Assembly (NCBI RefSeq): GCF_013122565.1
Contig: NZ_CP053258.1
Length of the DNA: 64,000 nucleotides
Reading direction: 5' to 3' (one strand)
From: Escherichia coli
GTDB lineage: Bacteria; Pseudomonadota; Gammaproteobacteria; Enterobacterales; Enterobacteriaceae
Shown: piece after piece, positions 25,425 through 52,742 of the stretch
How positions within the stretch are numbered: position 1 is the stretch's first letter
How the letters are laid out: the number at the start of each line of letters is the position of its first letter
Notes under the pieces: generated by a model
What the model saw: only the letters and a program-made list of their open reading frames with translations
What the model was told of the DNA's origin: nothing
Databases searched by the model: none
Translations under genes and position numbers: made by a program

Positions 25425-26557
25425 GACTGAAGATTCTCCGCAAGCCATGATGCCAGCTCGCCCGGTGTCATGGCGGCTATTTGTGCGCCGATATTAACCA
25501 GCGCCTGGGCCGTATCGTGGTCATAGCAGGGTGTTGCGTTGCTATCGAGCGCCGCCAGTCCCAGCACTTTGATGCCGCTCTGGACACACTTTTTCACCTG
25601 ATGCGTCAGCAATGATGATGAACCCCCTTCGTAAAAATCGCTCACGAGGATAATGACGCTTTTTGCTGGTTGTTCAATAAGTTGCCGACCATACTCCACG
25701 GCACTGGCGATATTGGTCCCGCCACCCAACTGTACTTTCATTAATAACTCTACCGGATCGGCAACGTCTGCCGTGAGATCAACGACGCTTGTGTCAAACG
25801 CCACCAGATGGGTACGAATGCCGGGTAACTGCCACAAACAGGCCGCCATCACCGCAGAGTGGATCACCGAATCGACCATCGAGCCGCTTTGATCAACCAG
25901 TAAGACCAGTTGCCATTGTTCGCTTTGGCGTTTAATGCGGCTGTTAAAGCGGGGGGATTCGATATACAACTTGCCGTGTTGCGGGTGCCAGTGTTGCAGG
26001 TTGGCGCGCAGAGTACTTTTGAAATCAAAGTTTCGCGCCAGTGGAATAAATGAGCGGCGACGGCGATCGCGGACACCAGAAAAAGCCTGACGAACCTCCT
26101 TTGCCAGTTGTGCCATAATTTCTTCCACAACCTGGCGCACTATCCGGCGGGCGGCAGCCAGTACTTCGGGATTCATCAGATGTTTGGTGTGCAAAACGGC
26201 GCGTAGCAGGCTTTCAGAAGGCTGCATACGTTCCAGCACGTCGAGATTTGTCACCACATCTTCAATGCCGTAGCGCAGTACGGCATCGCTTTCCAGCCGC
26301 TCAATCACCTGTTGCGGAAACAGCGTGTGAATACTGTTGATCCACTCAGGAGTGGTGAGATTTGAGCCACCTAATCCACCGGAGCGTTCACCACGCTGGA
26401 GCCGTTCAGGATCGCGCCCATACAGCCACTCCAGCGCGTGGTCTATCTGCCGGGCGTTGTCATCCAGCCCACAAAGCGTCGTTTCTGCCGCTTCGCCAAG
26501 AATTAATCGCCAGCGTTGTAGTTCACGGGTGGTCAGAAGATCGTTCAGTTCAGACAT
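25421..26557 (-). CDS. yehP: von Willebrand factor A (VWA) domain protein YehP, 378 aa
   Basis: MIDAS motif DQSGSM seen; start ATG 26557 (MSELNDLLTTRELQ...); 76-codon upstream extension in ORF track rejected; overlaps yehM 3' end by 8 nt. Confidence 0.85.
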   Translation of the reverse strand: MSELNDLLTTRELQRWRLILGEAAETTLCGLDDNARQIDHALEWLYGRDPERLQRGERSGGLGGSNLTTPEWINSIHTLFPQQVIERLESDAVLRYGIEDVVTNLDVLERMQPSESLLRAVLHTKHLMNPEVLAAARRIVRQVVEEIMAQLAKEVRQAFSGVRDRRRRSFIPLARNFDFKSTLRANLQHWHPQHGKLYIESPRFNSRIKRQSEQWQLVLLVDQSGSMVDSVIHSAVMAACLWQLPGIRTHLVAFDTSVVDLTADVADPVELLMKVQLGGGTNIASAVEYGRQLIEQPAKSVIILVSDFYEGGSSSLLTHQVKKCVQSGIKVLGLAALDSNATPCYDHDTAQALVNIGAQIAAMTPGELASWLAENLQS

Positions 26558-28829
26558 GGAAAACTCCCCAGTGTTGCAGCGATGCCAGTGCCTGCTGTTC
26601 GAGTTGTTGATGATGTGCAATGGCTTGTGGTGGACAATGCAACGGCATTTGCAGAGCCGAAACGGGAAGTTGCGCCAGTTGATAATGTTCAAGCACCTGA
26701 TGCGCCAGCGTCCCGCGTTCTCGTGGCGGTAGCCAGGCCATCGCCGCGCGTAAATCGGGCAGGGCATTGATAAAATCGGCATCACTTAGTTGATTTAAAT
26801 GACTGCTGAAACCGGCGATAAATGCCGGCTGACAAGCCAGTTGATGACGGGCTAATGCCAGCAAACCGTGCAGCGCCTCGCCGGATTGGGCCGGGGATAA
26901 CTGCGTCAGCATTGTCAGCGCCGCTTCGGCACTAGCGTTGGGATGTTCCAGACGCATCAGTGCGCCAAGAGTCGCGCCGCGATCCAGCGCCGGGGCATGA
27001 ATCGCCTGACTGCGGCGCTCCAGTAAGGCTACCGCCGCAGAAAGCGAAACGCCGGATAAGTTAACGCCGCTATGTAGATCGCGCAGGATATGGCAAAGCG
27101 CTTGCCAGCTATGCAGGTGAGCGTGAAACTCCTTTTCATCCGGTCTGCCGTTGGATTCACACAGCCACAGCGTGCGATCGATAGCCGCGCATAACGTCGT
27201 TTGTAATATCTGCGCGCCTTGCATACCGCTAATTTCATCCAGCCGCCATAAGGCATATAGCACTTCCAGCGCCTGGCCCATTTCGGCAAATTGATTTTCC
27301 TGGGCGATTAATAATGTGAGTTGTTCCAGTAATTGCTCACTAAAGCTCGCCAGGCCCGCTAACGCCGCCTGGCTAAGACATGCGGTAATGCTGCCGATTC
27401 CACCCGCGTCCAGCATATCGGCTTCTAATTTATTGCGTGCGGCTTCCTGGAGTGTTGCACCAAAGCAGGCGGCCTCAATCAATGCCGCATGCTGGCTAAG
27501 CGGGCGGGTTAATTTCCAGCGTTCTTCACCGTTGCCTGCAAGTGTCAGTGTACTTCCCTGCTGGCGTACAATCCCTGGGATCTCCAGTATTGCCAGCCGA
27601 TGTAACACCTGACTTTGCGCTAGTCCATTGGGGTTAAAGCGATTTAAGGTAAGCTGCGCCGGAAGAGAGATTCCGGTACGTTCCAGTTCGCAGGTGACAT
27701 CTTTTGGCAGAGGCGGTTGTGGCGTGGAGGGGGCAAGTTTACCGAATCCGTCACCCGCTAATGTGTCTATCAACGTTAGCAGAATCGGATCGGTATCGGG
27801 ATGAATAACTCCGCGATAGCTCCACGGCAACGGCGCGTTCAAGGCTTCTTTAATCAGCGAGCCTGCTATGGCATCCAGCCAGTCAGTGCGTAACGGTAGT
27901 GTATGACCGCGCAACTGTGCCAGCGCCATCACATGCAGATGAGCGGCAGCCATATCAGCGGTAGAAGCGGGCAATTTGTGCTGGCGCAAACGGGCAAGGA
28001 TAGTTTTTAGCAGTTGTTCACCGGCCTGCTGTAAGCCCCACTGCCAGCACCAGTTTTGCCAGACCGGGGCAGGCATACCGGAAAGGTATCCAGCCAGCAC
28101 ATCAAGGCGCTTTTCACTGTAGGGGGTGAGATAACAACCTGTAACGGCATCTGCCAGCGACGGCAATTCTGGCGTGTTAATTTCCTGCGGACATTCGCGC
28201 CACATTTTTGCCAGTGCCGGAGCGTGCCAGCCACCGCAGACAACTAACACGTCGCCATTATTTTGCTGCATCGCCCATCCAATCCAGCGGGCCATAAAGG
28301 CTTCGCGCTGACGATTGAGTGCATCGCCGAGGAAATCGCCCCGCAGTTGGGCAAAATAGTGCGCCAGTGCAGAGGGTAATGCAGTTCGCTGGCTTTCATC
28401 TTCGAACAAGTGATCCCACAGGGTATCGCTGTTATCCATGCGGGTGGCACGCAGCAGCAAGGTCTGGCTTTCCTCTTGCGTATCAGGCGAATCGTCCTCT
28501 TCTTCACTCTGTGCCCAGCAAGGCAAATCGATGAAGTAAGTTTGTGCCTGAATACGACGAGCGGCTTGTAGCGCCTGCCACTCCGGCGAAAATTCAGCAA
28601 ATGGCGTCCAGGCACCACGCCCGGGGGCTGCACCGTCCTGATACTGGCAATAACTGTAAATAGCTACCGGAAGCTGGTGGGCTAAAAACAGTTCGTCTAC
28701 CCGGTCATTAAAATCAGCCGGGCCTTCAATCAACACGTATCGTGGCCGCTGGCTTTCGATTAACGATTTCACCAGCCGGGCGCAGGCCGGACTATGATGC
28801 CGGATGCCGACAATTAACAGCTCGCTCAT
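26550..28829 (-). CDS. yehM: large uncharacterised protein YehM, 759 aa
   Basis: Start ATG 28829 (MSELLIVGIRHHSP...); no recognised catalytic motif; second gene of the yehLMPQ cluster. Confidence 0.8.
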   Translation of the reverse strand: MSELLIVGIRHHSPACARLVKSLIESQRPRYVLIEGPADFNDRVDELFLAHQLPVAIYSYCQYQDGAAPGRGAWTPFAEFSPEWQALQAARRIQAQTYFIDLPCWAQSEEEDDSPDTQEESQTLLLRATRMDNSDTLWDHLFEDESQRTALPSALAHYFAQLRGDFLGDALNRQREAFMARWIGWAMQQNNGDVLVVCGGWHAPALAKMWRECPQEINTPELPSLADAVTGCYLTPYSEKRLDVLAGYLSGMPAPVWQNWCWQWGLQQAGEQLLKTILARLRQHKLPASTADMAAAHLHVMALAQLRGHTLPLRTDWLDAIAGSLIKEALNAPLPWSYRGVIHPDTDPILLTLIDTLAGDGFGKLAPSTPQPPLPKDVTCELERTGISLPAQLTLNRFNPNGLAQSQVLHRLAILEIPGIVRQQGSTLTLAGNGEERWKLTRPLSQHAALIEAACFGATLQEAARNKLEADMLDAGGIGSITACLSQAALAGLASFSEQLLEQLTLLIAQENQFAEMGQALEVLYALWRLDEISGMQGAQILQTTLCAAIDRTLWLCESNGRPDEKEFHAHLHSWQALCHILRDLHSGVNLSGVSLSAAVALLERRSQAIHAPALDRGATLGALMRLEHPNASAEAALTMLTQLSPAQSGEALHGLLALARHQLACQPAFIAGFSSHLNQLSDADFINALPDLRAAMAWLPPRERGTLAHQVLEHYQLAQLPVSALQMPLHCPPQAIAHHQQLEQQALASLQHWGVFHV

Positions 28830-28839
28830 GCATCTTTCC

Positions 28840-29928
28840 TCACGGCAGGCGGTGGCGGGCTTGATAATAAGCCTGCCAGTGAGCTTCTTTATGTGTGGCG
28901 ACTCGCTGTTCGAAGTAACGGCGCAGACGAGCGCGATCTTCTTCGTTATCTTTGACGATGGTTCCGGCAATACAGTCCACCAGATCGGCTGGCTCACCTG
29001 CGCGATTCGCTAAAAACCAGGCGCGGACGCCCACAGCGTGGGCCACGTTCACGGCTTCAGCGGTGGACATAATCGCTGTTAGTGTATCCATTGACGTTTT
29101 CTTTTCGCCGTTGGCACGCAGATCGCGGAAGGTGCGGACCAGTAACTCCAGTACCGCGTCAGGCACTTTATGCGGAATACCGCTATGGGCCAGCAAACGC
29201 GCCGAAGCACTGGCGACCAGTTCCAGCTCCTGAGCGAAATCCATAATCGGAAAGACAGTTTCAAAATCGAAGCGACGCTTTAGCGCAGCACTCATCTCAT
29301 TGACGCCGCGATCGCGCGTATTGGCAGTGGCAATAATATTAAAGCCTTCCCGCGCATAGAGTTGACTGGCTTCACCAGTGAGTTCCGGCACCGTCATCAC
29401 CCTGTCAGAAAGCATACCTAACAGACAGTCTTGCACTTCCAGCGGTGTACGCGTTATCTCTTCAAAACGGACGATTTTGCCGTCGCGCATTCCCTGGTAA
29501 AGCGGGGCAGGGACCAGCGCTTCCGTTGATGGACCATGATTGATAAGCAGAGCGTAGTTCCAGCCGTACTTGATTTGATCTTCAGTGGTAGATGCGCCGC
29601 CCTGGATGGTTAACCCGGCATCGCCGCTAATAGCGGTTGCCAGTAATTCAGACAGGAGAGATTTTGCGGTGCCCGGTTCCCCCACCAACATCAAACCGCG
29701 CCCGGTGGCAAGAGTGACTAACATACGTTCGACAGCAGAGGGACTAATCACGACTTTACGGCTAATATTTTGCGCGCTATCGCCAAGGATAAAAGCACGT
29801 GCCGCAGGCAAACTTAACTGCCAACCGGGCGGGCAAGGTGCGTTATCATTTTGTTTTAATTTTGCCAGTTCATCGGCGTATAACACAGCGGCAGGCGGAC
29901 GCTGCAGATGATTATTCTGCGGTGACAT
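28840..29928 (-). CDS. yehL: MoxR-like AAA+ ATPase YehL, 362 aa
   Basis: Walker A LVGEPGTAKS and Walker B-like hydrophobic-DE segment seen; start ATG 29928 (MSPQNNHLQRPP...); 10-nt gap to yehM. Confidence 0.85.
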   Translation of the reverse strand: MSPQNNHLQRPPAAVLYADELAKLKQNDNAPCPPGWQLSLPAARAFILGDSAQNISRKVVISPSAVERMLVTLATGRGLMLVGEPGTAKSLLSELLATAISGDAGLTIQGGASTTEDQIKYGWNYALLINHGPSTEALVPAPLYQGMRDGKIVRFEEITRTPLEVQDCLLGMLSDRVMTVPELTGEASQLYAREGFNIIATANTRDRGVNEMSAALKRRFDFETVFPIMDFAQELELVASASARLLAHSGIPHKVPDAVLELLVRTFRDLRANGEKKTSMDTLTAIMSTAEAVNVAHAVGVRAWFLANRAGEPADLVDCIAGTIVKDNEEDRARLRRYFEQRVATHKEAHWQAYYQARHRLP

Positions 29929-30037
29929 ATATTCATCCCTGAAATGTATTAATGAAATAAACGATATTTTACGCGCAATAAATGTTTGGTGCATTAGTTG
30001 TTTGAGCGAAAAATATCTGGAAAGCAGATCACAGTAA

Positions 30038-31600: not shown

Positions 31601-34600
31601 TTAATGGAAAATGACGTCGGGTGCGCTTAACGCCTCACTCAAATCAAACACATCAAGTTCGGCAAAAGTGACGGATTTATTGTCACGGTACACTCGAAGA
31701 GAACGGAAGCTCATTAACGCTTTGCTATCAACATTGTAGTGGTTAAAACCGGGTGAAAACTTAAGGACCAGCCGGTACTCGCCCAGGTCATAGACAAATG
31801 CATCCTCATAGCCTGACTCCCAGCCTTTGTATCGCATTCCCATAAGCTGCCCAACGGTAGCGGATTTACCTTCCCAGCGAGTCAGGCTGTTACTGGTTGA
31901 CTCGTCAGGTGTGAGCAGCACCGTGCGGCGCGACAACTGGCGAAAAGGCGGCATAATTTCGTAATCGGCAAAAAGCTGTGCAAATTCACTGCGCATTTCT
32001 GCTGTCATTTCTAACGGGTGGGCAATGCCAATCAGAGCATCCGCAGGCAGGTCAATGGGCTCATCTTGCGCATTGCAGAACTCACCCTCTGCGGCCACAC
32101 GAAAGGCGTTGAGTAAACGACGCGGTTCATTTGCTGGATACACGCCCCATATTAATCGCTGAGTAACCAGGCGGGTAAAGGGATGATTAACAAACAGAGA
32201 ATGAAAATCTGCCAGCGACCAGCGTCGGGTGGTACGTAGGGCTGCTTCAAGACGCGGGAGCAGGTTTTTGCTCACCTGGGTGGCATCTTTTTTTAGCCCT
32301 TTTAGTCGGGCCAGTGCCTCGGGCGCTTTCAGTTGATCGTCATCGGCGCGCAACCGGGGAACACTTTTCTGGCGAACGTTTTGTTGATCAAAGATAACCG
32401 GGTTGAGGTTTTCATCGAAGCGAACGGTAAACTGCCGGGGACCAAAATCAAAAATCAACGCCTGCGGATCATCAAGACCCAGTGTTGGGACTAATCTGTC
32501 CGCTAACTCTTCCTGGCTTAGCCCGCGATTTTCTGCGACCACCTGAAGAAATTCCGCTGCGTTTTCACGTAATGAAGAGGATTTCGCCCGTTGTGATACA
32601 TGATGCAGCTGTATCAGCGCCATATCATTATTCATCAGGGTAAGTATATTCAGACCACTGACAGCACGGGCAGATTTGCCTTCTTGTGGCCAGGCGAGGA
32701 TCTGTGTCGTTAGATCCCGTGCCGTGCTTTCGTCACCAAAGAGACTTAACGCCAGAAATGCCCAGTTGTCTTTTGCGGGGGCACCAGCTTGTTGCCAGGC
32801 GGTGAAGAGATCCCAGGCAAAAGCTGCCAGCGTTTGCGGCTGGCAGAACGATTTCAGTTGTTCCAGTCCGCTATAAAAACGTCCCCCCTGGGTAAAGCGC
32901 AGCATTTCGCCGATAATTTCCAGAGCGTCATCGGTAACAGGTTGATTATTAGTGATAAGTCGAGGCCTGGACCACATTGCCGGATGCCAGAAATCAGGGG
33001 CTTTTGGAATGCGTGCCGGGTAAATCTCTATTTGACTCTGTTTAAGTAATTGTTCCAGGGCAGGCCATACATCAGCGCGATCCCAGCGGTTTGCCACGGT
33101 TTGTAGTAATACGCCATGTCCCTGTTCATACAGTAAACGCAGGGCAAGTAATGCAGCTTCGCTATTATCGCTGGATTTGGTGAAGACAAGAGGGATAAGT
33201 GCAGTAGCCGTATGTTCCGGCCATTGTAAAATCCACTGGCGGGCCAGATCACGCTGCGCCGCGAAACGTCGCCAGACGCGGGCAACAGGCAGGGCCAGTT
33301 CTGTTGCGCCAAAATGAATCAGCAGAGGAAATATCTCTTTTGGATGTCGGGCAAAGGCGGTGTTTAATCCAGGCAAAGCATCGGTACCCAGCACACTTAA
33401 CAGATATTCCCCCCCGGTGTAATGAAAATCAGCCTCGACAATTTGTTGCCAGCACGATACCGCCATTTCGTGCGGCATCTGCGCGATAAGGTACAGATTC
33501 CAAATCCCCCAACGCTTTTTATTACCATAGTAAAATCCGTGCTGAAAAGTTCGCCACCCTCCCATCAGCGCAATGCTATCTTGTGCCAGTAATGCTTTGG
33601 TGGCTTCTTCCCGGTACTGTTTAGATTTGGCCTGATACGCGTGATAAGTACGCAATAGTCCTATTGATGTGTATTCTTGCAGTTGCTGAGCATCAAAGGC
33701 ATCCAACTGTCCATGAAGAAGACGCTTATTAAATTCCAGGCTATGAACGTCAAAACCTAATTCCCGCAAGAAGGTATCCGCCCCTCTCTTAGCAAGACGT
33801 TCGTCAAAAGACATGGCGCTAAAATGGTCAATTGCAGTTTGCTGTTCCGGCGTCCAGTGTTTATTCGGCGACCTGTACGTTTGCGGTGCAAGCGTAAGAT
33901 CAGGCAGCGAAAAGTGAGGTATGGAAGTCTTTTTCTTCCTCCCACGCCATGGTGGTGAAACGAGGATTTCAGGCATTTGGCTGTTATCGGTACTATCAAT
34001 AACCGGTTTGGGCGGTGCCAATAAATAACTATTCAGTACTGCCCGGGCTTGAGTACTTAACCACTGCATCACCTCTTCTGCCAGTTGTGGCTGCGATGCC
34101 ATCAGCGTTTGTAACAGCGTACGCCAGTATTCATCTCGAGCTTTTTGCTGGGCAGGCAGCTTTTTGTCTTCGATGATTGGATAACCAGGGCGGGCTGGTG
34201 GTTCTTTTAACGCCAGCAGTTCTGCCAGTGCCGCGAGCGTCGCGTGGGGGAAGTTTTTACTGTATTTAGCCACACGTTGCAGGCTGGGTTTGTTTTTATC
34301 AGCCACCAGTAGCAAGGTGCGGATGACCTGCGGATGGTTAATTTGTACCAACAGACTGCCGCAATCTTCTTTATGGGCATACATCGCGAGGCGCGGAATG
34401 GCTGCCAGTCCTTGTTCGCGCAAAAGGGCGGCGCAGGCCGCGTAGCCGAAGTGGTTTTCATGCGACATGTAGCTGGCTTCGCGATCGCTAAATATATCCT
34501 GACTCCAGTAGTGATCGAGTTTCCTCACCGCTGTGGGGTCATTAGCAACAACTTTTAGCCACTCCTTAGAATGATAATGAGTCCGTGGGCATTCAAGGCC

Positions 34601-35248
34601 TATCAACTCATTGGCGATTTCTGGTTTTTCCGGGAGGATCAGCGCAATAAAAGGGCGGCGAACTTTGGTTATTCCTGGCAGTGCGGCAATGAGTTTGTCG
34701 GCGCAACGCTGCCAGCAGCTTTCCTCTGCCAGAGAGAGATGCTTACGCAGTCGGAGATCGAATTCGTTATAGGTTTCTGATCGATAACCATAGCCATAGT
34801 CCTCGTTCTGATACTGCAATGTCACTACCAGAGGATCACTCTCATAACACCGCGCAATAAACTGGCGTGCAATCACCACCTCAGTCGCATATTCCAGCCC
34901 CTCTTGTTGGACGATTTCGTCGAGTAACTGTTGGCTGTCATTTTGCGCGATACAGGCTAGCGCCGCCATTGTCCGGGCCGGGATTGAGGGTTTGTGTTCG
35001 CCGATCAAGTTGATGGCCTGCGTGATGGCGGACTGCCACTCCAGTGAAAAATTCTCATAACGCCAGACAATGTTTTTTTTCTTCTCAGCTTTTTGTAGCA
35101 ATTCATCACCCAGTGTCTGAATGATGCTTTCAGTGATAACAGGCACTGGTTCGCCCGGCCAATTGCGATGGCTGAGTGGTGTTTTGCCTTTTTTATATTT
35201 CAGTTCCAGTTGGGCGTTATCCGCCAGCCACGGTAATTCCTTGTCCAT
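31601..35248 (-). CDS. yehI: giant MolR-like protein YehI (1215 aa), lacking the N-terminal WGR domain
   Basis: Shares conserved C-terminal blocks with the four upstream paralogs (FAQLFADYEIMPPFRQL, RRWSLADF...HPFTRLVTQRLIWGVY, LEYATEVVIA); begins at the LPWLADN motif that follows the WGR domain in the paralogs. Confidence 0.85.
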   Translation of the reverse strand: MDKELPWLADNAQLELKYKKGKTPLSHRNWPGEPVPVITESIIQTLGDELLQKAEKKKNIVWRYENFSLEWQSAITQAINLIGEHKPSIPARTMAALACIAQNDSQQLLDEIVQQEGLEYATEVVIARQFIARCYESDPLVVTLQYQNEDYGYGYRSETYNEFDLRLRKHLSLAEESCWQRCADKLIAALPGITKVRRPFIALILPEKPEIANELIGLECPRTHYHSKEWLKVVANDPTAVRKLDHYWSQDIFSDREASYMSHENHFGYAACAALLREQGLAAIPRLAMYAHKEDCGSLLVQINHPQVIRTLLLVADKNKPSLQRVAKYSKNFPHATLAALAELLALKEPPARPGYPIIEDKKLPAQQKARDEYWRTLLQTLMASQPQLAEEVMQWLSTQARAVLNSYLLAPPKPVIDSTDNSQMPEILVSPPWRGRKKKTSIPHFSLPDLTLAPQTYRSPNKHWTPEQQTAIDHFSAMSFDERLAKRGADTFLRELGFDVHSLEFNKRLLHGQLDAFDAQQLQEYTSIGLLRTYHAYQAKSKQYREEATKALLAQDSIALMGGWRTFQHGFYYGNKKRWGIWNLYLIAQMPHEMAVSCWQQIVEADFHYTGGEYLLSVLGTDALPGLNTAFARHPKEIFPLLIHFGATELALPVARVWRRFAAQRDLARQWILQWPEHTATALIPLVFTKSSDNSEAALLALRLLYEQGHGVLLQTVANRWDRADVWPALEQLLKQSQIEIYPARIPKAPDFWHPAMWSRPRLITNNQPVTDDALEIIGEMLRFTQGGRFYSGLEQLKSFCQPQTLAAFAWDLFTAWQQAGAPAKDNWAFLALSLFGDESTARDLTTQILAWPQEGKSARAVSGLNILTLMNNDMALIQLHHVSQRAKSSSLRENAAEFLQVVAENRGLSQEELADRLVPTLGLDDPQALIFDFGPRQFTVRFDENLNPVIFDQQNVRQKSVPRLRADDDQLKAPEALARLKGLKKDATQVSKNLLPRLEAALRTTRRWSLADFHSLFVNHPFTRLVTQRLIWGVYPANEPRRLLNAFRVAAEGEFCNAQDEPIDLPADALIGIAHPLEMTAEMRSEFAQLFADYEIMPPFRQLSRRTVLLTPDESTSNSLTRWEGKSATVGQLMGMRYKGWESGYEDAFVYDLGEYRLVLKFSPGFNHYNVDSKALMSFRSLRVYRDNKSVTFAELDVFDLSEALSAPDVIFH

Positions 35249-38200: not shown

Positions 38201-39016
38201 ATTTGCAAGTGAGAGATGCTTACGCAGGCGCATTTCAACCGAAGCGAAGCGTAACAGATAGCCAGGCTGCCTGTTATCCGGGGTAACCGTAATGAGATGG
38301 GCATCATAATCCCAGTCGAAGCGGATGAATTGCAATGCAATGACAACCTCAGTGGCATATTCCAGACCACCTTCCTGGACAATTTGATCCATTAGCTCTT
38401 CATGATCGTTACGATTGAAGCCTTGTTCCAGCGCAACCAGTACCGCCAGAACCATCGGTGGTAGCGTGGTGCTAATTGGCGAGTCGATAAGGCCTACGGC
38501 TTGTGTAATTGCCTGCTGCCAGTCCAGTGAACAGGTGCTGTAATCGAAGGTGAGCACCTTTTTAAAACGCCGGTGAGTATTCGCGGCGACGGAGCGTAGC
38601 AGGGTTAATTCATTCTCCTGTGGCACAGGAGCGCCAGGCCAGCGTCGATGACTTAGTGTGGTTGGCGCAACCTCTGTCGGTAAAATGATTTGGGTGTCGT
38701 CTGCCAGCCAGGGGAGGTGGTCTCCAGTAAATGCCGGTTTGTCTTGTGGCAAAGGGGTTATTTCCGGGCATTCGATAACCTTGCCGGGCGCAGATGTCGG
38801 TGTCATCACGGATACTTCTTCTACGTAGCCCTTTTTTGTTTTCTCCGTAATCAGCTTCAGTTCCGCTTTTTCCGCCGCTGCAGCATCTGCAAAGCTTTTT
38901 ACCTGGCTTTGCCCGTTAGTACCGACTTTGCCCCAGGTAATATGCAGCTCGTTTCCCTGCTGCTCCACCGCCCAGAATTTATGTGATTTTTCATCCTGAT
39001 AAATATAGGTTTTCAT
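35258..39016 (-). CDS. MolR-like giant protein, paralog 1 (1252 aa): N-terminal WGR domain plus YehI-like body
   Basis: N-terminus MKTYIYQDEKSHKFWAVEQQGNELHITWGKVGTNGQ (WGR signature); body shares blocks with YehI; 9-nt gap to yehI. The corresponding K-12 locus (molR) is a pseudogene by my recollection. Confidence 0.8.
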   Translation of the reverse strand: MKTYIYQDEKSHKFWAVEQQGNELHITWGKVGTNGQSQVKSFADAAAAEKAELKLITEKTKKGYVEEVSVMTPTSAPGKVIECPEITPLPQDKPAFTGDHLPWLADDTQIILPTEVAPTTLSHRRWPGAPVPQENELTLLRSVAANTHRRFKKVLTFDYSTCSLDWQQAITQAVGLIDSPISTTLPPMVLAVLVALEQGFNRNDHEELMDQIVQEGGLEYATEVVIALQFIRFDWDYDAHLITVTPDNRQPGYLLRFASVEMRLRKHLSLANDDVWQRCADKLIAALGTMPTWHQPLVALLLPEKPEVAHEIARHLCGQKGLYALEWLKLTTTDEQVLAELGKYYPGQPGQVFDDYYGGKIWCATILKEQGVAALARFAPYAAGDTCGEVLMHINHPQALTLLIHASEQGKRCHDRMTKAFVRFPHAALAALAELLAQKDEKRWRMMLMTMLISQPTLAEQVIPWLSAPAVTELKSCLQQLTQPSVYANADLLPAVLISPPWLAKKKKSTISVLDLAPLSLESFCTINETKSKTLQVQHNWQPHQQAEGEKAFLTSLGFNRWDWNKHRGYIDVPEIALDAWQREDYSALIDAFKSYNSPYQGEWNLSSLHVLPINKAIEMWNILSKEPHTGAKQVMLHLRLAGLTGFIHSASRYPQEALPIAQYFAAIELAPLIARAFNKLKTLRQDARSWLLKYPEHAITGLLPAALGKAGEAQDNARAALRMLTENGHQPLLQEIARRYNQPEVTDAVNALLALDPLDNHPTKIPTLPAFYQPSLWTRPVLKANAQSLPDSALLYLGEMLRFPQEEALYPGLLQVKDACTPDSLAGFAWDLFTAWQTAGAPSKESWAFNALGVLGNDDTARKLTPLIRAWPGESQHKRATVGLDILATIGSDIALMQLNGIAQKLKFKALQERAKEKIADIAESRELTVAELEDRLAPDLGLDDNGSLLLDFGSRQFTVSFDETLKPFVRDVSGSRLKDLPKPNKSDDESRADEAVNRYKLLKKDARTVAAQQVARLESAMCLRRRWSPENFQLFLVEHPLVRHLTRRLIWGVYSAENQLLACFRVAEDNSYSTADDDLFTLPEGDISIGIPHVLEISPTDAAAFGQLFADYELLPPFRQLDRNSYALTEAERNASELTRWAGRKCPSGRVMGLANKGWIKGEPQDGGWICWMIKPLGRWSLIMEIDEGFAVGMSPAELSAEQLLSKLWLWEGKAESYGWRNNSTQEAQFSVLDAITTSELINDIEALFE

Positions 39017-40450
39017 TGCAAATTCCTTTTAATCAAACAGTGATTCAATATCGTTAATCAGCTCGCTGGCAGTGATGTCGTCGAGCACGGAGAAGGGATA
39101 AACCGATTTGCGCGGCGTCAGTTTGTACAACTGAATGTGCTCAATTTTTTGGTTATCGCTGATTTCGGTGACGGGCAATCCAACACAGAAGCCGGGTGTC
39201 ACACTCAGTTCGACGTAGCCATCATCCACAGCTTTATAAAATGAGTAATAGCCGCCACCATCCAGAACATCGCCCCGTTGCCAGCCTTTATTCATCAGCC
39301 CGGCGACGCGCCAACTCGCTGCCTGGCGACCAGCCCAGCGCTGCAAATCGTTGCTGTTTTTTTCTGAATCAGAGAGCTGAGACCAGGGGCGATCAAGTTG
39401 ACGGAACGGTGGCAGGAGTTCGTAGTCAGAGAACAGTTGGGCAAATTCAGCAGCCTGTGGGGCCGGGATTTCCAGCACATGCGGGATACCGATACAGCCC
39501 TGCGCAAGGGTAAACGGGGTATCCTGACCGTCGCTAAAACTGCCATCCTCCGCCACGCGAAAACAGCAAATAAGGTGATTATCAGCGTCATAAATGCCCC
39601 ACATCAGACGTTGGGTGATATGACGAACCAGGGGATGCTCAACCAGAAACAGGCGGAACTGTTCTGCAGTCCAGCGGCGACGCTGACACATGGCGGCTTC
39701 CAGACGCGAAATCTGTTGTGCAGCTACCGTGCGGACATCTTTTTTCAACAACTTGTAGCGATTTACCGCTTCCTCAGCCAGCGTTTCATCATCGCTTTTG
39801 TTCGGTTTGGGCAGGTCTTTCAGACGGTTGCCGGAAGTATCGCGCACAAACGGTTTTAAGGATTCATCAAAGCTGACGGTGAACTGGCGTGGGCCGAAAT
39901 CCAGCAGCAGCGAACCGTTATCATCCAGACCGAGATCGGGCGCTAACCGGTCTTCCAGCTCTGCGACAGTGAGCTGGCGGCTTTCGGCAATCTGGGCGAT
40001 TTTAGTTCTAGCCTGATCCTGCAAGGCTTTAAATTTTAGCTTTTGCGCAATGCCGTTAAGCTGCATCAGGGCGATATCGCTGCCGATAGCAGCAAGAATA
40101 TCCAGCCCGACAGTGGCGCGTTTATGCTGGGATTCCCCCGGCCAGGCGCGGATGAGCGGGGTGAGTTTGCGGGCGGTGTCATCGTTACCCAGAATCCCCA
40201 GTGTGGTAAATGCCCAGTTATCTTTAGCTGAGCCACTGGCAGATTCCCAACTGAGGAAGAGATCCCAGGCAAAATCGGCAAGAGATTGCGGGGTACAGGC
40301 CTCGATTACCTGTGTAATTCCTGGGTAAAGGGTGGCTTCGCGGGGGAAAGAGAGCATGGTGCACAGGTGCAGGATGGCTGAATCTGAAAGTGCCTTGCCG
40401 TTACTGCGCAGAAGCGGGCGGTGCCATACTTCTGGCGAACACCACCCAGG
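39017..40450. repeat. about 1.4 kb direct repeat (copy A) spanning the 3' part of paralog 2 and its downstream junction
   Basis: Near-identical by eye to 42866..44300 (offset 3849 bp); only scattered substitutions over the first about 1.2 kb; spurious plus-strand ORFs recur at identical offsets (39196/43045, 39798/43647, 40050/43899). Confidence 0.8.
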
Positions 40451-42865
40451 GAGTTTAGCGATTTTCTGCGGATAGTTTTCCAGCGGATCTGCTGCTAAAA
40501 AGTCGGTAAGTGCAGTCATTACCTCAGGTTGTTGGTAACGGCTGGCAATTTTTTTCAGCAACGCGAGATGACCATTATTGGCCAGGTAGCGTAATGTCAT
40601 CCGGGCATCTTGTTGTTCTTTAACTGGTTTACTCAGCGCAATGGGCAGCAGCCCGGTAATGGCATGTTCCGGGTAGGTGGTGAGCCAATATTCAGCGACA
40701 TCTCGTACGGATTTTAACTGGCAAAATGCGCGGGCCATCAGCAGGGCAACTTCAGTGGAACCGAATTGAGCGGCGAGGGGAACCGCCTCCTTAGGGTTTA
40801 CCAGGGCATAACGCAACAGACCTGGTACCGTAGATAGACCAAATCGCTCAACCACTTTTTCAGCACCCACGAGGTGCATGTGTGAGAGTCCATTCCAGAT
40901 TGAGAGCGCTTTCTCTGCTGGTAGACGAGTGAGTATGGATACAGAAAAGGTAATAAAACCTTCATAATCATACTTTGGTCGGGTATTTAACAACGATTCA
41001 TAATCTTCCGTTTCCAGCAGACGAATGGCCGTTTTTGTTACGCCCCATTTAATATCAAATCTTTCTGGATCAGGATTATTCTCATCAAATGCTCCGCTTC
41101 TGAATCCCAGGCGGCGTAAGACTTCAGCAGTAGAAGGTATTTCTGCTTCGGGTTGTGGCTGAGGTTTGGGGCCAATGGACTCCAGAGGTAATACGGGTAA
41201 TGTAAATATCGTCGTGGCTGATTTATTCTTTTTCTTCAGCCAAATTGGATTAGTTAATATACCGGGTAACTCACAAGCATTGGCTATCTCTTCTTTAGCA
41301 TGCAATTGAGGGAAATAACTGAATAAAAGTTGTTTCTGTTCCTCACTCAACCAGGGCATTGTATTACGCAAGGTTTGAGCATTACCTAATACAATTTGTT
41401 CCATCAGGCGAGAATACCTCAGATTTTTAGCACTAAGCAAAGCTGCAGTAAGGGCATAAAGCGCCGATTCTGGGTACTTCGAAGCCGAAATTTCGACACC
41501 TATGGCACATTCCTCTTTGATAAACAACGTAACGACATCAGGATGGTTAATTTCCTGAAGTGCGTGTCTGACAGGATAACTATCGTTAACGCCCTCTTGC
41601 AGACGTGACAGCGCATTAAGACCTTGTTCACGCAGTAGGGTTTTAATACAACGCTTCGTCATATCGCCTCCCCATCCCGTTGTGAGTTCAAGTTGATGGA
41701 AATGCTTCAGCAGACACGTTGCTTGTGGGTCAGTTGTGACAAGGGAAAGCCACTCAATCTCTGGGTAATCATGCATAGGGGCAATTTCCAGGGCTATCTG
41801 ATTGGCAATATCTGGTTTTTCTGGTAGCAAAAAAGCAATTAATGGGCGTCTGCGGGCAGGCAGTGAAGGGAGAGCATCTATGAGTTTATTAGCACAGCGT
41901 TGCCAGGTTTCCTCATCTGTGTGCGAAAGGTGTTCTCGTAAACGTAACTCTATTTCGTCGCTGAATCCATATTTGTAGCGCATGTCGGAAATATCGTGGC
42001 TAAGGCTTACTACAGGTAGATAATAATTGTCTGCCATTTCCCCTCTTCTCAGCGCACTAAAAAGACTATTGTAATGAAGTTTTAAAGTGGCATTTTTTGT
42101 AGGATCGGTATTTGCGTCGTCAGTCATTTGTACATGCTGTATAGCGATAACTAACTCAGTGGCATACTCAAGGCCTCGCAGTTGCACTATGCTATCCAGC
42201 CATGTATGAGGGCGACCGGGGCAGCCGATAATTAATCTTGTTAGTGTCAATATGGCGTCGGAAAGCAACGATCCGTCTTGCTGTAATTTATGGATGCGCG
42301 AAATAGTTTCCTGTAACGCCAATTGCCATTCTGACTGGCATTGGCTGACATCGAGCTTTTGCAGACAGGCAAGGTAAAATGCTGCCCAATATGGGTACTT
42401 TTTTAGTTGCATCCAGAAGAAACCATCTTTATCAACAATGTCCAGAGGATCATTAATCAAGTGACGATGGCTAAACGGCGCGGGTTCATCATTGGCAAAA
42501 ATAACAATTGACTCACCGTCCTTCAGCCAGGGCGGCGTTTCCAACGTGGGCATCGCTTGTGGCTGTGCCGTTTCAGGCGTTGTGAAGTTTCCGGTTGGTA
42601 TTGCTAACTCTTGTACTGAAATTGTGCTTGATATCGGAGAATTTATGATGGTTTCTGGCGAACCATGCTTCACATATCCCTTCTTCATCTTCTCCGCAAT
42701 CAGCTTCAGTTCCGCTTTTTCCGCCGCTGCAGCATCTGCAAAGCTTTTTACCTGGCTTTGCCCGTTAGTACCGACTTTGCCCCAGGTAATATGCAGCTCG
42801 TTTCCCTGCTGCTCCACCGCCCAGAATTTATGTGATTTTTCATCCTGATAAATATAGGTTTTCAT
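39029..42865 (-). CDS. MolR-like giant protein, paralog 2 (1278 aa)
   Basis: Same WGR N-terminus; C-terminal about 470 aa near-identical to paralog 3; 12-nt gap to paralog 1. Confidence 0.8.
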   Translation of the reverse strand: MKTYIYQDEKSHKFWAVEQQGNELHITWGKVGTNGQSQVKSFADAAAAEKAELKLIAEKMKKGYVKHGSPETIINSPISSTISVQELAIPTGNFTTPETAQPQAMPTLETPPWLKDGESIVIFANDEPAPFSHRHLINDPLDIVDKDGFFWMQLKKYPYWAAFYLACLQKLDVSQCQSEWQLALQETISRIHKLQQDGSLLSDAILTLTRLIIGCPGRPHTWLDSIVQLRGLEYATELVIAIQHVQMTDDANTDPTKNATLKLHYNSLFSALRRGEMADNYYLPVVSLSHDISDMRYKYGFSDEIELRLREHLSHTDEETWQRCANKLIDALPSLPARRRPLIAFLLPEKPDIANQIALEIAPMHDYPEIEWLSLVTTDPQATCLLKHFHQLELTTGWGGDMTKRCIKTLLREQGLNALSRLQEGVNDSYPVRHALQEINHPDVVTLFIKEECAIGVEISASKYPESALYALTAALLSAKNLRYSRLMEQIVLGNAQTLRNTMPWLSEEQKQLLFSYFPQLHAKEEIANACELPGILTNPIWLKKKNKSATTIFTLPVLPLESIGPKPQPQPEAEIPSTAEVLRRLGFRSGAFDENNPDPERFDIKWGVTKTAIRLLETEDYESLLNTRPKYDYEGFITFSVSILTRLPAEKALSIWNGLSHMHLVGAEKVVERFGLSTVPGLLRYALVNPKEAVPLAAQFGSTEVALLMARAFCQLKSVRDVAEYWLTTYPEHAITGLLPIALSKPVKEQQDARMTLRYLANNGHLALLKKIASRYQQPEVMTALTDFLAADPLENYPQKIAKLPGWCSPEVWHRPLLRSNGKALSDSAILHLCTMLSFPREATLYPGITQVIEACTPQSLADFAWDLFLSWESASGSAKDNWAFTTLGILGNDDTARKLTPLIRAWPGESQHKRATVGLDILAAIGSDIALMQLNGIAQKLKFKALQDQARTKIAQIAESRQLTVAELEDRLAPDLGLDDNGSLLLDFGPRQFTVSFDESLKPFVRDTSGNRLKDLPKPNKSDDETLAEEAVNRYKLLKKDVRTVAAQQISRLEAAMCQRRRWTAEQFRLFLVEHPLVRHITQRLMWGIYDADNHLICCFRVAEDGSFSDGQDTPFTLAQGCIGIPHVLEIPAPQAAEFAQLFSDYELLPPFRQLDRPWSQLSDSEKNSNDLQRWAGRQAASWRVAGLMNKGWQRGDVLDGGGYYSFYKAVDDGYVELSVTPGFCVGLPVTEISDNQKIEHIQLYKLTPRKSVYPFSVLDDITASELINDIESLFD

Positions 42866-44300
42866 TGCAAATTCCTTTTAATCAAACAGTGATTCAATAT
42901 CGTTAATCAGCTCGCTGGCAGTGATGTCGTCGAGCACGGAGAAGGGATAAACCGATTTGCGCGGCGTCAGTTTGTACAACTGAATGTGCTCAATTTTTTG
43001 GTTATCGCTGATTTCGGTGACGGGCAATCCAACACAGAAGCCGGGTGTCACACTCAGTTCGACGTAGCCATCATCCACAGCTTTATAAAATGAGTAATAG
43101 CCGCCACCATCCAGAACATCGCCCCGTTGCCAGCCTTTATTCATCAGCCCGGCGACGCGCCCACTCGCTGCCTGGCGACCAGCCCAGCGCTGCAAATCGT
43201 TGCTGTTTTTTTCTGAATCAGAGAGCTGAGACCAGGGGCGATCAAGTTGACGGAACGGTGGCAGGAGTTCGTAGTCAGAGAACAGTTGGGCAAATTCAGC
43301 AGCCTGTGGGGCCGGGATTTCCAGCACATGCGGGATACCGATACAGCCCTGCGCAAGGGTTAACGGGTTATCGTGACCGTCGCTAAAACTGCCATCCTCC
43401 GCCACGCGAAAACAGCAAATAAGCTGATTATCAGCGTCATAAATGCCCCACATCAGACGTTGGGTGATATGACGAACCAGGGGATGCTCAACCAGAAACA
43501 GACGGAACTGTTCTGCAGTCCAGCGGCGACGCTGACACATGGCGGCTTCCAGACGCGAAATCTGTTGTGCAGCTACCGTGCGGACATCTTTTTTCAACAA
43601 CTTGTAGCGACTTACCGCTTCCTCAGCCAGAGTTTCATCATCGCTTTTGTTCGGTTTGGGCAGGTCTTTCAGACGGTTGCCGGAAGCATCGCGCACAAAC
43701 GGTTTTAAGGATTCATCAAAGCTGACGGTGAACTGGCGTGGGCCGAAATCCAGCAGCAGCGAACCGTTATCATCCAGACCGAGATCGGGCGCTAACCGGT
43801 CTTCCAGCTCTGCGACAGTGAGCTGGCGGCTTTCGGCAATCTGGGCGATTTTAACTCTTGCCTGATCCTGCAAGGCTTTAAATTTTAGCTTTTGCGCAAT
43901 GCCGTTAAGCTGCATAAGAGCGATATCGCTGCCGATAGCAGCAAGAATATCCAGCCCGACAGTGGCGCGTTTATGCTGGGATTCCCCTGGCCAGGCGCGG
44001 ATGAGCGGGGTGAGTTTGCGGGCGGTGTCATCGTTACCCAGAATCCCCAGCGCGGTAAATGCCCAGTTATCTTTAGCGGAGCCACTGGCAGATTCCCAAC
44101 TGAGGAAGAGATCCCAGGCGAAATCAGCAAGAGACTGCGGAGTACAGGCCTCGATTACCTGTGTAATCCCGGGGTAAAGGGTGGCTTCACGGGGGAAAGA
44201 GAGCATGGTGCACAAGTTCAGGATAGCTGAGTCAGGAAGTGCCTTGCCGTTACTGTGCAGAAGCGGGCGATGCCATACTTCTGGCGAACACCAGGTGGGG
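42866..44300. repeat. about 1.4 kb direct repeat (copy B) spanning the 3' part of paralog 3
   Basis: See copy A. Confidence 0.8.
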
Positions 44301-46618
44301 AGTTTGGCGATTTTCTGCGGAAAATTATCGAGTGGGTCGCAGTTAAGGACATCTAACAAACCTGTAAGCACTTCTGGCTGATTATAGCGGTGGGCAATTT
44401 GTTCCATTAACGGCTGATGCCCATGATGAGCCAAATAGCGTATTGCCATCACAGCATCCTCACGTTCACTGCCCGGTTTGCCGAGTACAGCAGGTAATAG
44501 ACCTGTAATAGCATGTTCCGGATAGGTTAATAACCAACGCTGTGCGACGTCACGTACAGATTTTAGCTGACGAAAAGCGCGTGCCATTAATAGCGCCACG
44601 TCGGTTGTACCAAAACGTGCGGCTAAAGGAATGGCTTCCTGAGGTACGACTAAGGCGTGACGCAGCAAGCCGGGTAATGTGGGAAGACCGTAATAGTCCA
44701 CTACTTCGCATGCGTTAATCAGATGTAGGTGAGTCAGTGCGTTCCATATTTTCAGTGCTTTATTTTCTGTTAGCTGAAGCAATACAGACACATTGACAAG
44801 GATATGACTTGCCCACCGAGGTTTATCCCAGATCTTTAATAAAGCTTCGTAATTGTCTTGCTCGAAAAAATCAATGGCAGCCTGAGGTATACCCCAACCA
44901 AGCTCTTCGCAATGGAAGTTCAACAAATCCAGGATATCTTTCGCTGATGGGGATGGCGCAGATGGCTCAGTCAGATTTTTTGTTGCGGGGATAGATTCCA
45001 GGGGGGAAAGAGGTAATACCCGGAGAGTGAGGTTGATACCAGCAACCTTTTTCTTTTTTTTCACCCATGAAGGGGCGATCAATATACTAGGTAACTCATT
45101 CTGATGAGCAATTTTTTCGCTGGACATAAGCTGAGGAAAATAACTAAATAAAATTTGTTGCTGTTTTTCGTCAAGGCAGGGTAGCGTTTTATGTAAGGCT
45201 TGCGCATTACCCAAGATGATGCGCTCCAGTAAACGATAATAGCGCGGGTTATTTGTGTGATTTAAGGCTTTTGTTAATGCATAAAGTGCAGCTTCTGGAT
45301 GTAAATTTGTTGCGCATTCCACTTCACTGATACATTCTTCTTTTATTAATATATTAATGGCGTCAGGATGATTAACTTGTGTAATTAGATTTTTAACTGA
45401 ATAACTATCCTTTATCCAACGCTGAAGAAGCGGAAGAGCTTTTACCCCTCGTTCGCGCAGTAATGTCGCAGTGCATTTTTCAGCCATCTGCCAGTCGTTA
45501 TAGCGCTTAAGTTGGTTAAGATTCATTAATTCATTGAGTGCCTGCGCATCTGTGGCAACGATATCCAACCATTCCATTTCTGGGTAATTAACACATTGCA
45601 CTAAATCAAGGACAATTTGATTAGCAATTTCAGGTTGTTCAGGCAAAAGAAAACCAATTAAAGGACGTTTACGTGGAGACAGGAAAGGCAACGCTTGAGT
45701 AAGCTTTTTCATGCACCGTTGCCATGTTTTTTCATCAGTGCGCGAGAGATGATTTCGCAAGTGAAAATCTACAGTGCTGAAGCCGAACTCAAAACGTTGT
45801 TCTGATATTGTGTTACTGAGAATAAGCGTTGGTACGGAATTATTTGTAAAAAAATTGTATTCCATGCGAACATACAAAAGGCATTTATTTAATGCATCAC
45901 AATTTCCTGGATCTTGATTTTGATCATCAGATATCTGAATTTGCTGCAATAGCAAGACTAATTCGGTCGCGTATTCTACCCCATGTTGTTGCACCAGATA
46001 ATCAAAAAGATCATTGACACTATCGCTATTTTGCATAAGTAACTTGACCAGCAAAAAGAATGCATCGGAGAAAATAGAACCGTCTATATTTTTCTGCTGA
46101 ACGCGCATGATTGCTTCATCCCGGCCTCGTTGCCATTCCGGGCGGCAGTCACTCACATCAAAATGCTGTAATTGTGCAAGAAAATAGTATTCCTCATATT
46201 TGTTTTCCCATAAGAATGACCATAACGAGATATCTTTAGCAAACGTGCTGACACTGTCTGCTGGGAATTTCCTACTGCTAAATACTCTCTTCGTTTCGAG
46301 AATAATTGGTTCAATGTCTGCAATCCACGGTGGTGTGTCGACATCAGTAATAATTGGATGTTGTTCGCTATCATCATCTGTGGTGGGAACAGCAATCAGC
46401 ATGTTTATATCGTCAGTCGATTTTACATACCCCTTCTTCACCTTCTCCGCAATCAGCTTCAGTTCCGCTTTTTCCGCCGTTGCAGCATCTGCAAAGCTTT
46501 TTACCTGACTTTGCCCGTTAGTGCCGACTTTGCCCCAGTTGATATGCAGCTCGTTGTCTTGCTGCTCAACCGCCCAGAATTTATGTGATTTTTCGTCCTG
46601 ATAGATATAGGTTTTCAT
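42878..46618 (-). CDS. MolR-like giant protein, paralog 3 (1246 aa)
   Basis: WGR N-terminus; divergent, AT-rich N-terminal/central coding region; C-terminus near-identical to paralog 2. Confidence 0.8.
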   Translation of the reverse strand: MKTYIYQDEKSHKFWAVEQQDNELHINWGKVGTNGQSQVKSFADAATAEKAELKLIAEKVKKGYVKSTDDINMLIAVPTTDDDSEQHPIITDVDTPPWIADIEPIILETKRVFSSRKFPADSVSTFAKDISLWSFLWENKYEEYYFLAQLQHFDVSDCRPEWQRGRDEAIMRVQQKNIDGSIFSDAFFLLVKLLMQNSDSVNDLFDYLVQQHGVEYATELVLLLQQIQISDDQNQDPGNCDALNKCLLYVRMEYNFFTNNSVPTLILSNTISEQRFEFGFSTVDFHLRNHLSRTDEKTWQRCMKKLTQALPFLSPRKRPLIGFLLPEQPEIANQIVLDLVQCVNYPEMEWLDIVATDAQALNELMNLNQLKRYNDWQMAEKCTATLLRERGVKALPLLQRWIKDSYSVKNLITQVNHPDAINILIKEECISEVECATNLHPEAALYALTKALNHTNNPRYYRLLERIILGNAQALHKTLPCLDEKQQQILFSYFPQLMSSEKIAHQNELPSILIAPSWVKKKKKVAGINLTLRVLPLSPLESIPATKNLTEPSAPSPSAKDILDLLNFHCEELGWGIPQAAIDFFEQDNYEALLKIWDKPRWASHILVNVSVLLQLTENKALKIWNALTHLHLINACEVVDYYGLPTLPGLLRHALVVPQEAIPLAARFGTTDVALLMARAFRQLKSVRDVAQRWLLTYPEHAITGLLPAVLGKPGSEREDAVMAIRYLAHHGHQPLMEQIAHRYNQPEVLTGLLDVLNCDPLDNFPQKIAKLPTWCSPEVWHRPLLHSNGKALPDSAILNLCTMLSFPREATLYPGITQVIEACTPQSLADFAWDLFLSWESASGSAKDNWAFTALGILGNDDTARKLTPLIRAWPGESQHKRATVGLDILAAIGSDIALMQLNGIAQKLKFKALQDQARVKIAQIAESRQLTVAELEDRLAPDLGLDDNGSLLLDFGPRQFTVSFDESLKPFVRDASGNRLKDLPKPNKSDDETLAEEAVSRYKLLKKDVRTVAAQQISRLEAAMCQRRRWTAEQFRLFLVEHPLVRHITQRLMWGIYDADNQLICCFRVAEDGSFSDGHDNPLTLAQGCIGIPHVLEIPAPQAAEFAQLFSDYELLPPFRQLDRPWSQLSDSEKNSNDLQRWAGRQAASGRVAGLMNKGWQRGDVLDGGGYYSFYKAVDDGYVELSVTPGFCVGLPVTEISDNQKIEHIQLYKLTPRKSVYPFSVLDDITASELINDIESLFD

Positions 46619-52611: not shown

Positions 52612-52742
52612 AGTAGGCATTACTTCTTAATAGTGAAAAGGGGTTAGATAGTACCAAATGGGAAAATGTTAAGTAAGTACTTCTCTATATTCTTCAGGTA
52701 AACTATCAGCTGATGGTTTATCTATACAAAAAAGGAGTCGGG

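Follow-up and report, generated by a model that had tools for sequence, protein, structure and literature searches.

A near-identical junction module shared by divergent DUF4132 paralogs in the yeh locus of Escherichia coli

Introduction

How can two adjacent genes be almost the same at one end, silent positions included, and hardly resemble each other in the middle? The question is raised by a tandem array of DUF4132 genes in a 64,000-nt stretch of Escherichia coli DNA (GCF_013122565.1, contig NZ_CP053258.1), which is called the window here and whose positions serve as coordinates. The array lies on the minus strand in the yeh locus, where the gene order is metG, P5, P4, P3, P2, yehI, yehK and yehL/M/P/Q. 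An earlier note on this DNA had counted four paralogs; the open reading frame (ORF) list holds five, namely yehI and four "molR-like" genes with a WGR and a DUF4132 domain, all located between metG and yehK/yehLMPQ. Two of them are the subject of this report: P4 (42878..46618, minus strand, 1246 aa, WGR and DUF4132; copy 2 of the earlier note) and P3 (39029..42865, minus strand, 1278 aa; copy 3), a rare member of the array. Comparison of the sequences makes it very likely that gene conversion between the P4/P3 and P3/P2 junctions keeps the modules of P3 and P4 alike, and that unequal crossover changes the copy number of the array.

The Repeated Unit Spans a Gene Junction

The P3-P4 repeat was compared ungapped at an offset of 3849 bp. 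Read directly from this comparison, positions 38849-40472 and 42698-44321 are 97.7% identical, and the two copies differ at 38 positions. Copy A of this junction module (38849..40472) extends from the first 168 nt of P2 across a 12-bp spacer to the last 1444 nt of P3. Copy B (42698..44321), 3849 bp away, is composed of the first 168 nt of P3, a 12-bp spacer and the last 1444 nt of P4. The P3-P2 spacer (39017..39028, minus strand), which reads AAGGAATTTGCA on the coding strand and carries an AAGGA ribosome-binding motif, is identical to the P4-P3 spacer at 42866-42877. The earlier note had reported near-identity over the last ~470 codons of the two genes, and this was confirmed at the 3849-bp offset, silent positions included. 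Its description of the block as purely a 3' gene segment has to be revised, since the repeat crosses the 12-bp spacer and the 56 WGR codons of the downstream gene; the repeated unit is thus the junction module.

The two edges of the module are of different kinds. The left edge is sharp (38848/38849), and the right edge is graded from 99% through 91% to 63% identity. Only 15 mismatches fall in 38849-40200 (98.9% identity), and 23 fall in 40201-40472 (91.5%); past 40472 the ungapped identity drops to ~63% and then to ~25%. The first 464 bp (38849..39312, equal to 42698-43161) hold no mismatch at all and span the gene junction. This perfect stretch is probably the most recent conversion tract. 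It is also the longest identical run between the P3 and P4 junction units, whereas the longest runs in other neighbouring unit pairs are 29 and 38 bp. A single-breakpoint MaxChi search on the aligned repeat units (200 permutations) placed the break at 40473, with a chi2 of 788 against a permutation maximum of 18. To the left of the break 49 of 1656 positions are mismatched, and to the right 906 of 2100 (identity ~57%). The boundary is therefore abrupt, as the earlier note had proposed, and divergence along the genes is not uniform. Beyond it lies the P3-specific region (40473..42697, minus strand; codons 57 to ~798), which is mostly helical in an AlphaFold2 (AF2) model and has a G+C content of 45.5%.

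Silent Sites Separate the Module From the Middle

The contrast between module and middle is strongest at silent sites. Between P3 and P4, synonymous divergence (dS) is 0.026 over codons 881-1278, 0.34 over codons 801-880 and 0.026-0.029 in the module. Over codons 57-800 the silent sites are saturated, with a proportion of synonymous differences (pS) of 0.79. The same C-terminal module shows a dS of 1.16 between P3/P4 and P2, and of 1.74 against P5. Because the module has diverged this far from P2 and P5 at silent positions, the silent-site identity of P3 and P4 is not explained by selection at the protein level.

The starts of the genes follow a pattern of their own. It had been claimed that both the central and the N-terminal coding regions of P3 and P4 have diverged strongly; this is correct for the centre, where silent sites are saturated, but not for the N-terminus, where P3 and P4 share 93% identity over the first 56 codons. 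Between P2 and P3 these codons are 100% identical. Silent divergence in the four WGR starts (38849-39016, 42698-42865, 46451-46618 and 50270-50437) is far below that in the rest of P2-P5: dS for P2 is 0 against P3, 0.27 against P4 and 0.85 against P5. From these values, gene starts appear to be homogenised across the whole array, and more weakly with distance.

Paralogs Are Closer Than Orthologs

Two haplotypes carrying both P3 and P4 were available, that of the window and the MB53/L016/L017 type. MB53 has P2-P3-P4 in the same order at ~95% identity, with P4 cut by IS1; L016 and L017, which are independent draft assemblies, carry an intact five-gene array of the MB53 haplotype. When the two copies of the window and the two of MB53 were compared site by site within 38849-40200, 37 concerted sites, at which the window copies are alike and unlike both MB53 copies, and 0 orthologous sites were observed directly. 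Outside the tract boundaries, only orthologous site patterns were found. Within a genome the pair of modules is 98.7% identical in the window and 98.0-98.2% identical in MB53, L016 and L017, whereas module identity between the two haplotypes is 95.4-96.0%. Paralogs within a genome are thus closer to each other than orthologs between genomes, and this homogenisation covers silent and non-coding positions and has abrupt boundaries.

The perfectly identical part of the module differs between the haplotypes. These independent tracts, again a direct observation, cover module positions 1217-1680 in the window; the MB53 type has its tract at 478-1102 (equivalent to window 39427-40051). The difference implies at least one homogenising event in each lineage separately, after the haplotypes had diverged. 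The middles of P3 and P4 have orthologs at 93-100% identity in other strains, and E. fergusonii or E. albertii holds a partial counterpart of each; the middles are therefore old. Orthologous middles have a dN/dS of 0.18-0.32, which indicates purifying selection.

A wider stretch of the locus also stands out in allelic comparison. From yehQ to P4 (window 21800-46600) the window is 94-97% identical to L004, L005 and L007, and metG/apbC there are 99.6% identical. From mid-P5 onward, identity to 6EVA climbs to 98-100%. The yeh DUF4132/MoxR locus thus has much deeper allelic divergence than its flanks, with an exchange boundary inside P5. The near-identity of metG/apbC to several E. coli genomes also places the source of the DNA in this species.

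Loss of Whole Units and Copy Number

The same repeats have also removed a gene unit. Collinear alignment showed that the arrays of 6EVA (P2-P4-P5) and UTME-7 (P2-P4) correspond to the five-gene array minus one 3849-bp unit. The single junction of 6EVA was scored at positions that distinguish the two module copies of L017: the 27 upstream sites (to position 477) are of the P4>P3 type, and the 20 sites from position 1103 are of the P3>P2 type. A single switch therefore lies between module positions 477 and 1103, inside the identical tract, as expected of unequal crossover. This one-switch chimera is a directly observed deletion product and implies one crossover with loss of one unit. These two arrays support the suggestion in the earlier note that recombination between the repeats can alter copy number.

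Population data agree with a variable array. The 11 other arrays that were painted with the window paralogs are ordered subsets or chimeras of P2-P5, and include the types P2-P3-P4 (MB53), P2-P4-P5, P2-P5, P2-P3, and P2-P4 with the 5' end of P5. In K-12 there is a single, disrupted molR whose 3' half and C-terminal module are P2-type and whose 5' end resembles that of P5. A count of WGR gene starts in 5426 complete E. coli genomes gave 7063, spread over 5419 genomes (median 1 and maximum 3 per genome). The four WGR-type copies of the window exceed this maximum, and the P3 middle was found in 4 of the 5426 genomes.

In other strains (L001-L011) the genes of the array have often become pseudogenes, through frameshifts, internal stops, IS1 or ISVsa5 insertions, or internal deletions. 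The genes yehL, yehM or yehQ are also disrupted in some other strains; the array genes are all intact in the window, L016 and L017. One draft E. coli assembly holds a partial P3 (P0276) on a contig of exactly 3849 bp, the repeat period. Such a contig indicates that short-read assemblers break or circularise at the junction modules, and that copy number in draft assemblies is unreliable here. The yeh locus has also been described as an insertion site of a resistance transposon in ST131 (PMC9334617).

A Model of Exchange and Its Alternatives

The observations can be joined in a simple model. In length and similarity, the stretch made up of the C-terminal module, the spacer and the next WGR start suffices for homologous recombination. 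Gene conversion, a non-reciprocal exchange, has probably acted repeatedly between the P4/P3 and P3/P2 junctions and keeps the copies 98-100% identical, silent sites included. Its tracts probably end at the protein-module edges, where the sequences cease to be similar. An unequal but reciprocal crossover in the junction stretch removes or adds a whole 3849-bp unit, which probably accounts for the shorter arrays of other strains. We infer that the exchange depends on RecA.

Among the alternatives, import from outside fares best. P3 would then be a cassette brought in from another Escherichia strain by homologous recombination in the conserved flanking modules, and the shared flanks would be the footprint of that single import. 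The presence of P3 in just 4 of 5426 complete genomes, the low G+C of the P3 and P4 middles and the occurrence of this C-module type with five middles are all compatible with import, and the difference between yehQ-P4 (94-97%) and metG/apbC (99.6%) indicates that the locus has been exchanged between lineages. As an account of the shared flanks, import is nevertheless improbable. A donor-type flank would differ from the resident copy by the 4-5% that is usual between haplotypes. The observed difference is 1.1-2%, and this holds for both haplotypes, whose perfect tracts moreover are not the same. Nor can 37 concerted sites and not one orthologous site arise by import alone. It may have been the route of P3's first arrival, but it is not the cause of the present identity.

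The remaining alternatives are far weaker. In one, a 3.85-kb unit was recently duplicated in tandem, so that P3 arose from P4 or P4 from P3, and positive selection then drove very fast divergence of the middle. The exact 3849-bp period and the nearly identical ends of the unit are what such an event would leave, but it is contradicted by the silent sites: pS reaches 0.79 in the middle, whereas the dS of the module is 0.03, a contrast at silent positions that no regime of selection produces. The middles, moreover, have their 93-100% orthologs and their E. fergusonii/E. albertii counterparts, and the dN/dS of 0.18-0.32 in orthologous middles is not that of positive selection. Recent segmental duplication was rejected on the contrast between middle and module. 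The earlier note had left the choice between gene conversion and segmental duplication open; the 37 concerted and 0 orthologous sites speak for conversion, and the saturated middle speaks against a recent duplication.

Strong purifying selection or codon-level constraint, acting alone and without recombination, is just as hard to credit as the source of the likeness. The C-terminal module is indeed the most conserved part of the family, but the modules of P2 and P5 are functional and conserved too and still show a dS of 1.2-1.7 against P3/P4. The identity also runs through the non-coding spacer, and selection does not account for 37 concerted against 0 orthologous sites in the comparison with MB53; this candidate was rejected on silent-site and site-pattern data. 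A repeat collapsed or wrongly duplicated in the source assembly can be dismissed as well: short-read assemblies do break here and one draft contig with partial P3 is exactly 3849 bp long, but the copies differ at 38 positions and the same P2-P3-P4 order and period recur in the MB53 complete genome and two other assemblies with ORFs intact.

Several points weigh against gene conversion between the junctions as the full account. The direction and number of conversion events are not readable from the compared sequences. Only two haplotypes with P3 and P4 together were available, which limits the case for ongoing conversion to two lineages, and the window's own haplotype was absent from every other assembly searched. 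No Chi site was found within P2-P5 except one at 35294; with none in the tract, its position has no known recombination hotspot signal. The C-terminal modules have a G+C content of 53.5-53.7%, compared with 45.5% in the P3 middle, 42.1% in the P4 middle and a window mean of 50.1%, and the higher value in the module could reflect biased conversion, a different or foreign origin, or amino-acid content. Finally, P3 could first have arrived by import from another strain and not by an old local duplication. Exact-sequence look-ups of the window P3 and of P0280 returned no match on record.

Protein Modules and the Genes of the Locus

P2-P5 share one architecture: a WGR domain (~56 codons), a paralog-specific and mostly helical middle (~750 codons) and a C-terminal module (~475 codons) that includes DUF4132. 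Family alignment shows a conserved WGR domain, then ~750 columns without a majority residue, then the conserved module. The conversion tract thus stops where the conserved protein modules do, since that is as far as the nucleotide similarity extends. Pfam places WGR at residues 7-67 of P3 and DUF4132 (PF13569) at residues 1012-1195, over the full model with an E-value of 4e-46. PF13569 is present in all close homologs, and the N-terminal WGR domain (PF05406) is that of the MolR/YehH family. A search with the C-terminal 479 residues of P3 gave matches to 5795 representative clusters, 2639 of them at E <= 1e-30. Among the 150 matches listed, most are near full length (query 2-477), the module lies at or within ~90 residues of the C-terminus, and the proteins that carry it are 236-1673 aa long.

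AF2 models the C-terminal module with a pLDDT of 95.6, as helical repeats at residues 29-173 followed by alpha/beta parts. For P3 residues 1-810 the model (pLDDT 89) shows the WGR domain, a disordered linker at 70-101 and mostly helical repeats. No solved structure was found to resemble the C-terminal module beyond its helical repeats, and a sequence search of solved structures returned only the WGR domain (2ra8) and weak repeat matches.

The combination of modules varies across Escherichia. The P3/P4-type C-module (>=90% amino-acid identity) is joined to at least five different middles, and one middle type occurs with two different C-module types. At the same array position, E. fergusonii CP125351.1 (L013) and E. 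coli GCA_051977855.1 (L014) carry different middle cassettes, so mosaic genes are common in the family across Escherichia. The E. fergusonii protein P0002 is P3-like from residue 500 on and different before, and P0007 (1330 aa) has only the C-terminal module in common with P3 and P4. This modular variation in DUF4132 proteins suggests which part is constant and which is specific. We infer that the C-terminal module is constant since it works with YehLMPQ, and that the middle binds something variable or gives specificity.

The other genes of the array are P5 (46631..50437, minus strand, 1268 aa, WGR and DUF4132), which is the first array gene downstream of metG; P2 (35258..39016, minus strand, 1252 aa, WGR and DUF4132), whose first 168 nt are identical to those of P3; and P1, which is yehI (31601..35248, minus strand, 1215 aa), the most divergent paralog, with DUF4132 and without WGR. 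The five genes are spaced by 9-12 bp and all five ORFs are intact. AAGGA ribosome-binding motifs lie upstream of P2, P3 and P4. The N-terminus of P5 matches the first ~87 positions of NCBIfam NF047464, as does the Pfam WGR region of P3; the NCBIfam match is restricted to the first ~70-87 residues and comes via an unrelated Leptospira family. An Rfam search found no RNA family inside the array.

On the upstream side of the array lies metG (50578-52620). The 140-bp gap between metG and P5 (50438..50577, minus strand) corresponds to the molR promoter region of K-12, and in K-12 the molR promoter is reported to be activated by BglJ-RcsB (PMC3950696). Further downstream, yehL, yehM, yehP and yehQ (23424..29994, minus strand) encode MoxR-type AAA+, DUF5682, VWA and SWIM proteins according to their ORFs and orthologous RefSeq loci. 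The ORF order, with the array between metG and yehI-yehK-yehLMPQ, matches the RefSeq-annotated loci of other strains. There the genes are named "WGR and DUF4132 domain-containing protein" and "DUF4132 domain-containing protein YehI"; the RefSeq orthologs of P5 are annotated as WGR and DUF4132 proteins.

A Conserved Five-Gene System

Distant homologs (44% module identity) occur as a single DUF4132 gene followed directly by genes for AAA_5 (MoxR-type), DUF5682, VWA_CoxE and a protein of ~610-640 aa. This last protein occupies the yehQ position and is without a Pfam match in the distant loci. From this gene order, the DUF4132 protein appears to be a core component of a conserved set of five genes, and in Escherichia it has been expanded to an array. 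Among the anti-phage defence models of PADLOC-DB 2.0, no match at E <= 0.01 was found for yehI, P3, yehK, yehL, yehM, yehP or yehQ. The searchable literature on DUF4132, DUF5682, yehI and molR yielded no study of the evolution or function of the array, and mentions the locus only for the transposon insertions in ST131 and the molR promoter of K-12.

A more speculative idea, which we regard as rather unlikely, is that the yeh array is a natural cassette-shuffling system. It would be a conserved five-part machine of DUF4132, MoxR, DUF5682, VWA and SWIM proteins, in which the DUF4132 subunit has a constant docking module (the C-terminal 475 aa) and a middle of helical repeats that can be exchanged and serves to recognise a variable target; the WGR domain would perhaps also belong to the constant docking module. 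The idea is compatible with the family-wide pattern of conserved ends and variable middle, the five middles per C-module, the differences between arrays and the divergence above that of the flanks. If true, the junction modules would be handles by which recognition cassettes are gained, lost or recombined, as expected of a conflict or immunity locus under changing pressure. Caution is called for, since purifying selection acts on orthologous middles and the copies in other strains are frequently pseudogenes.

Whatever the function, the locus offers a natural example of concerted evolution in which the tracts follow protein-module boundaries and the same repeat has removed a gene unit in a related strain. 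It also means that short-read assemblies will misjudge copy number at a locus present in 5419 of 5426 complete E. coli genomes. Attention is further drawn to a widely conserved five-gene system (DUF4132, MoxR, DUF5682, VWA and the ~620-aa protein at the yehQ position).

Comparison With Known Systems

A close relative of the array is the molR (yehH)/yehI pair of K-12, with which it shares locus, domains and neighbours. K-12, however, has one disrupted WGR-type copy and yehI, whereas the window has four intact WGR-type copies and yehI. At the level of the whole locus, RavA-ViaA and CoxD-CoxE are partner systems of a MoxR AAA+ protein and a VWA protein. In a similar way, DUF4132 genes are found in linkage with yehL (AAA_5, MoxR-like) and yehP (VWA_CoxE), both in E. 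coli and in distant bacteria. Unlike RavA-ViaA and CoxD-CoxE, the yeh system has extra partners, namely DUF5682, the SWIM protein and the DUF4132 protein.

A constant region is combined with variable recombining cassettes in Rhs and CDI orphan modules and in Neisseria pilE/pilS. The yeh array resembles them in that conserved segments flank variable ones and act as recombination handles, and in that its content varies between strains. The differences are that the yeh copies are all complete ORFs, each preceded by a ribosome-binding site, and not silent fragments, that the variable part is the middle and not the tip, and that toxin or immunity domains were not detected. Evidence of programmed cassette switching of the pilE/pilS or vlsE type, with one expression site and silent, incomplete donors, was not seen; the array consists of five complete ORFs with start codons.

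Among duplicated bacterial genes, tufA/tufB in Salmonella and E. coli and the rRNA operons undergo concerted evolution by RecA-dependent gene conversion. The yeh array shares with them paralogs that are closer within a genome than orthologs are between genomes, homogenised silent sites and tracts bounded by loss of similarity. It differs in that one module and the start of the next gene are homogenised and the rest of the genes are very different, and in that the copies are adjacent in tandem, so that the repeats also cause the loss of whole units. The yeh case is thus a fresh and well-documented instance of a well-known process, concerted evolution, in a poorly studied locus.
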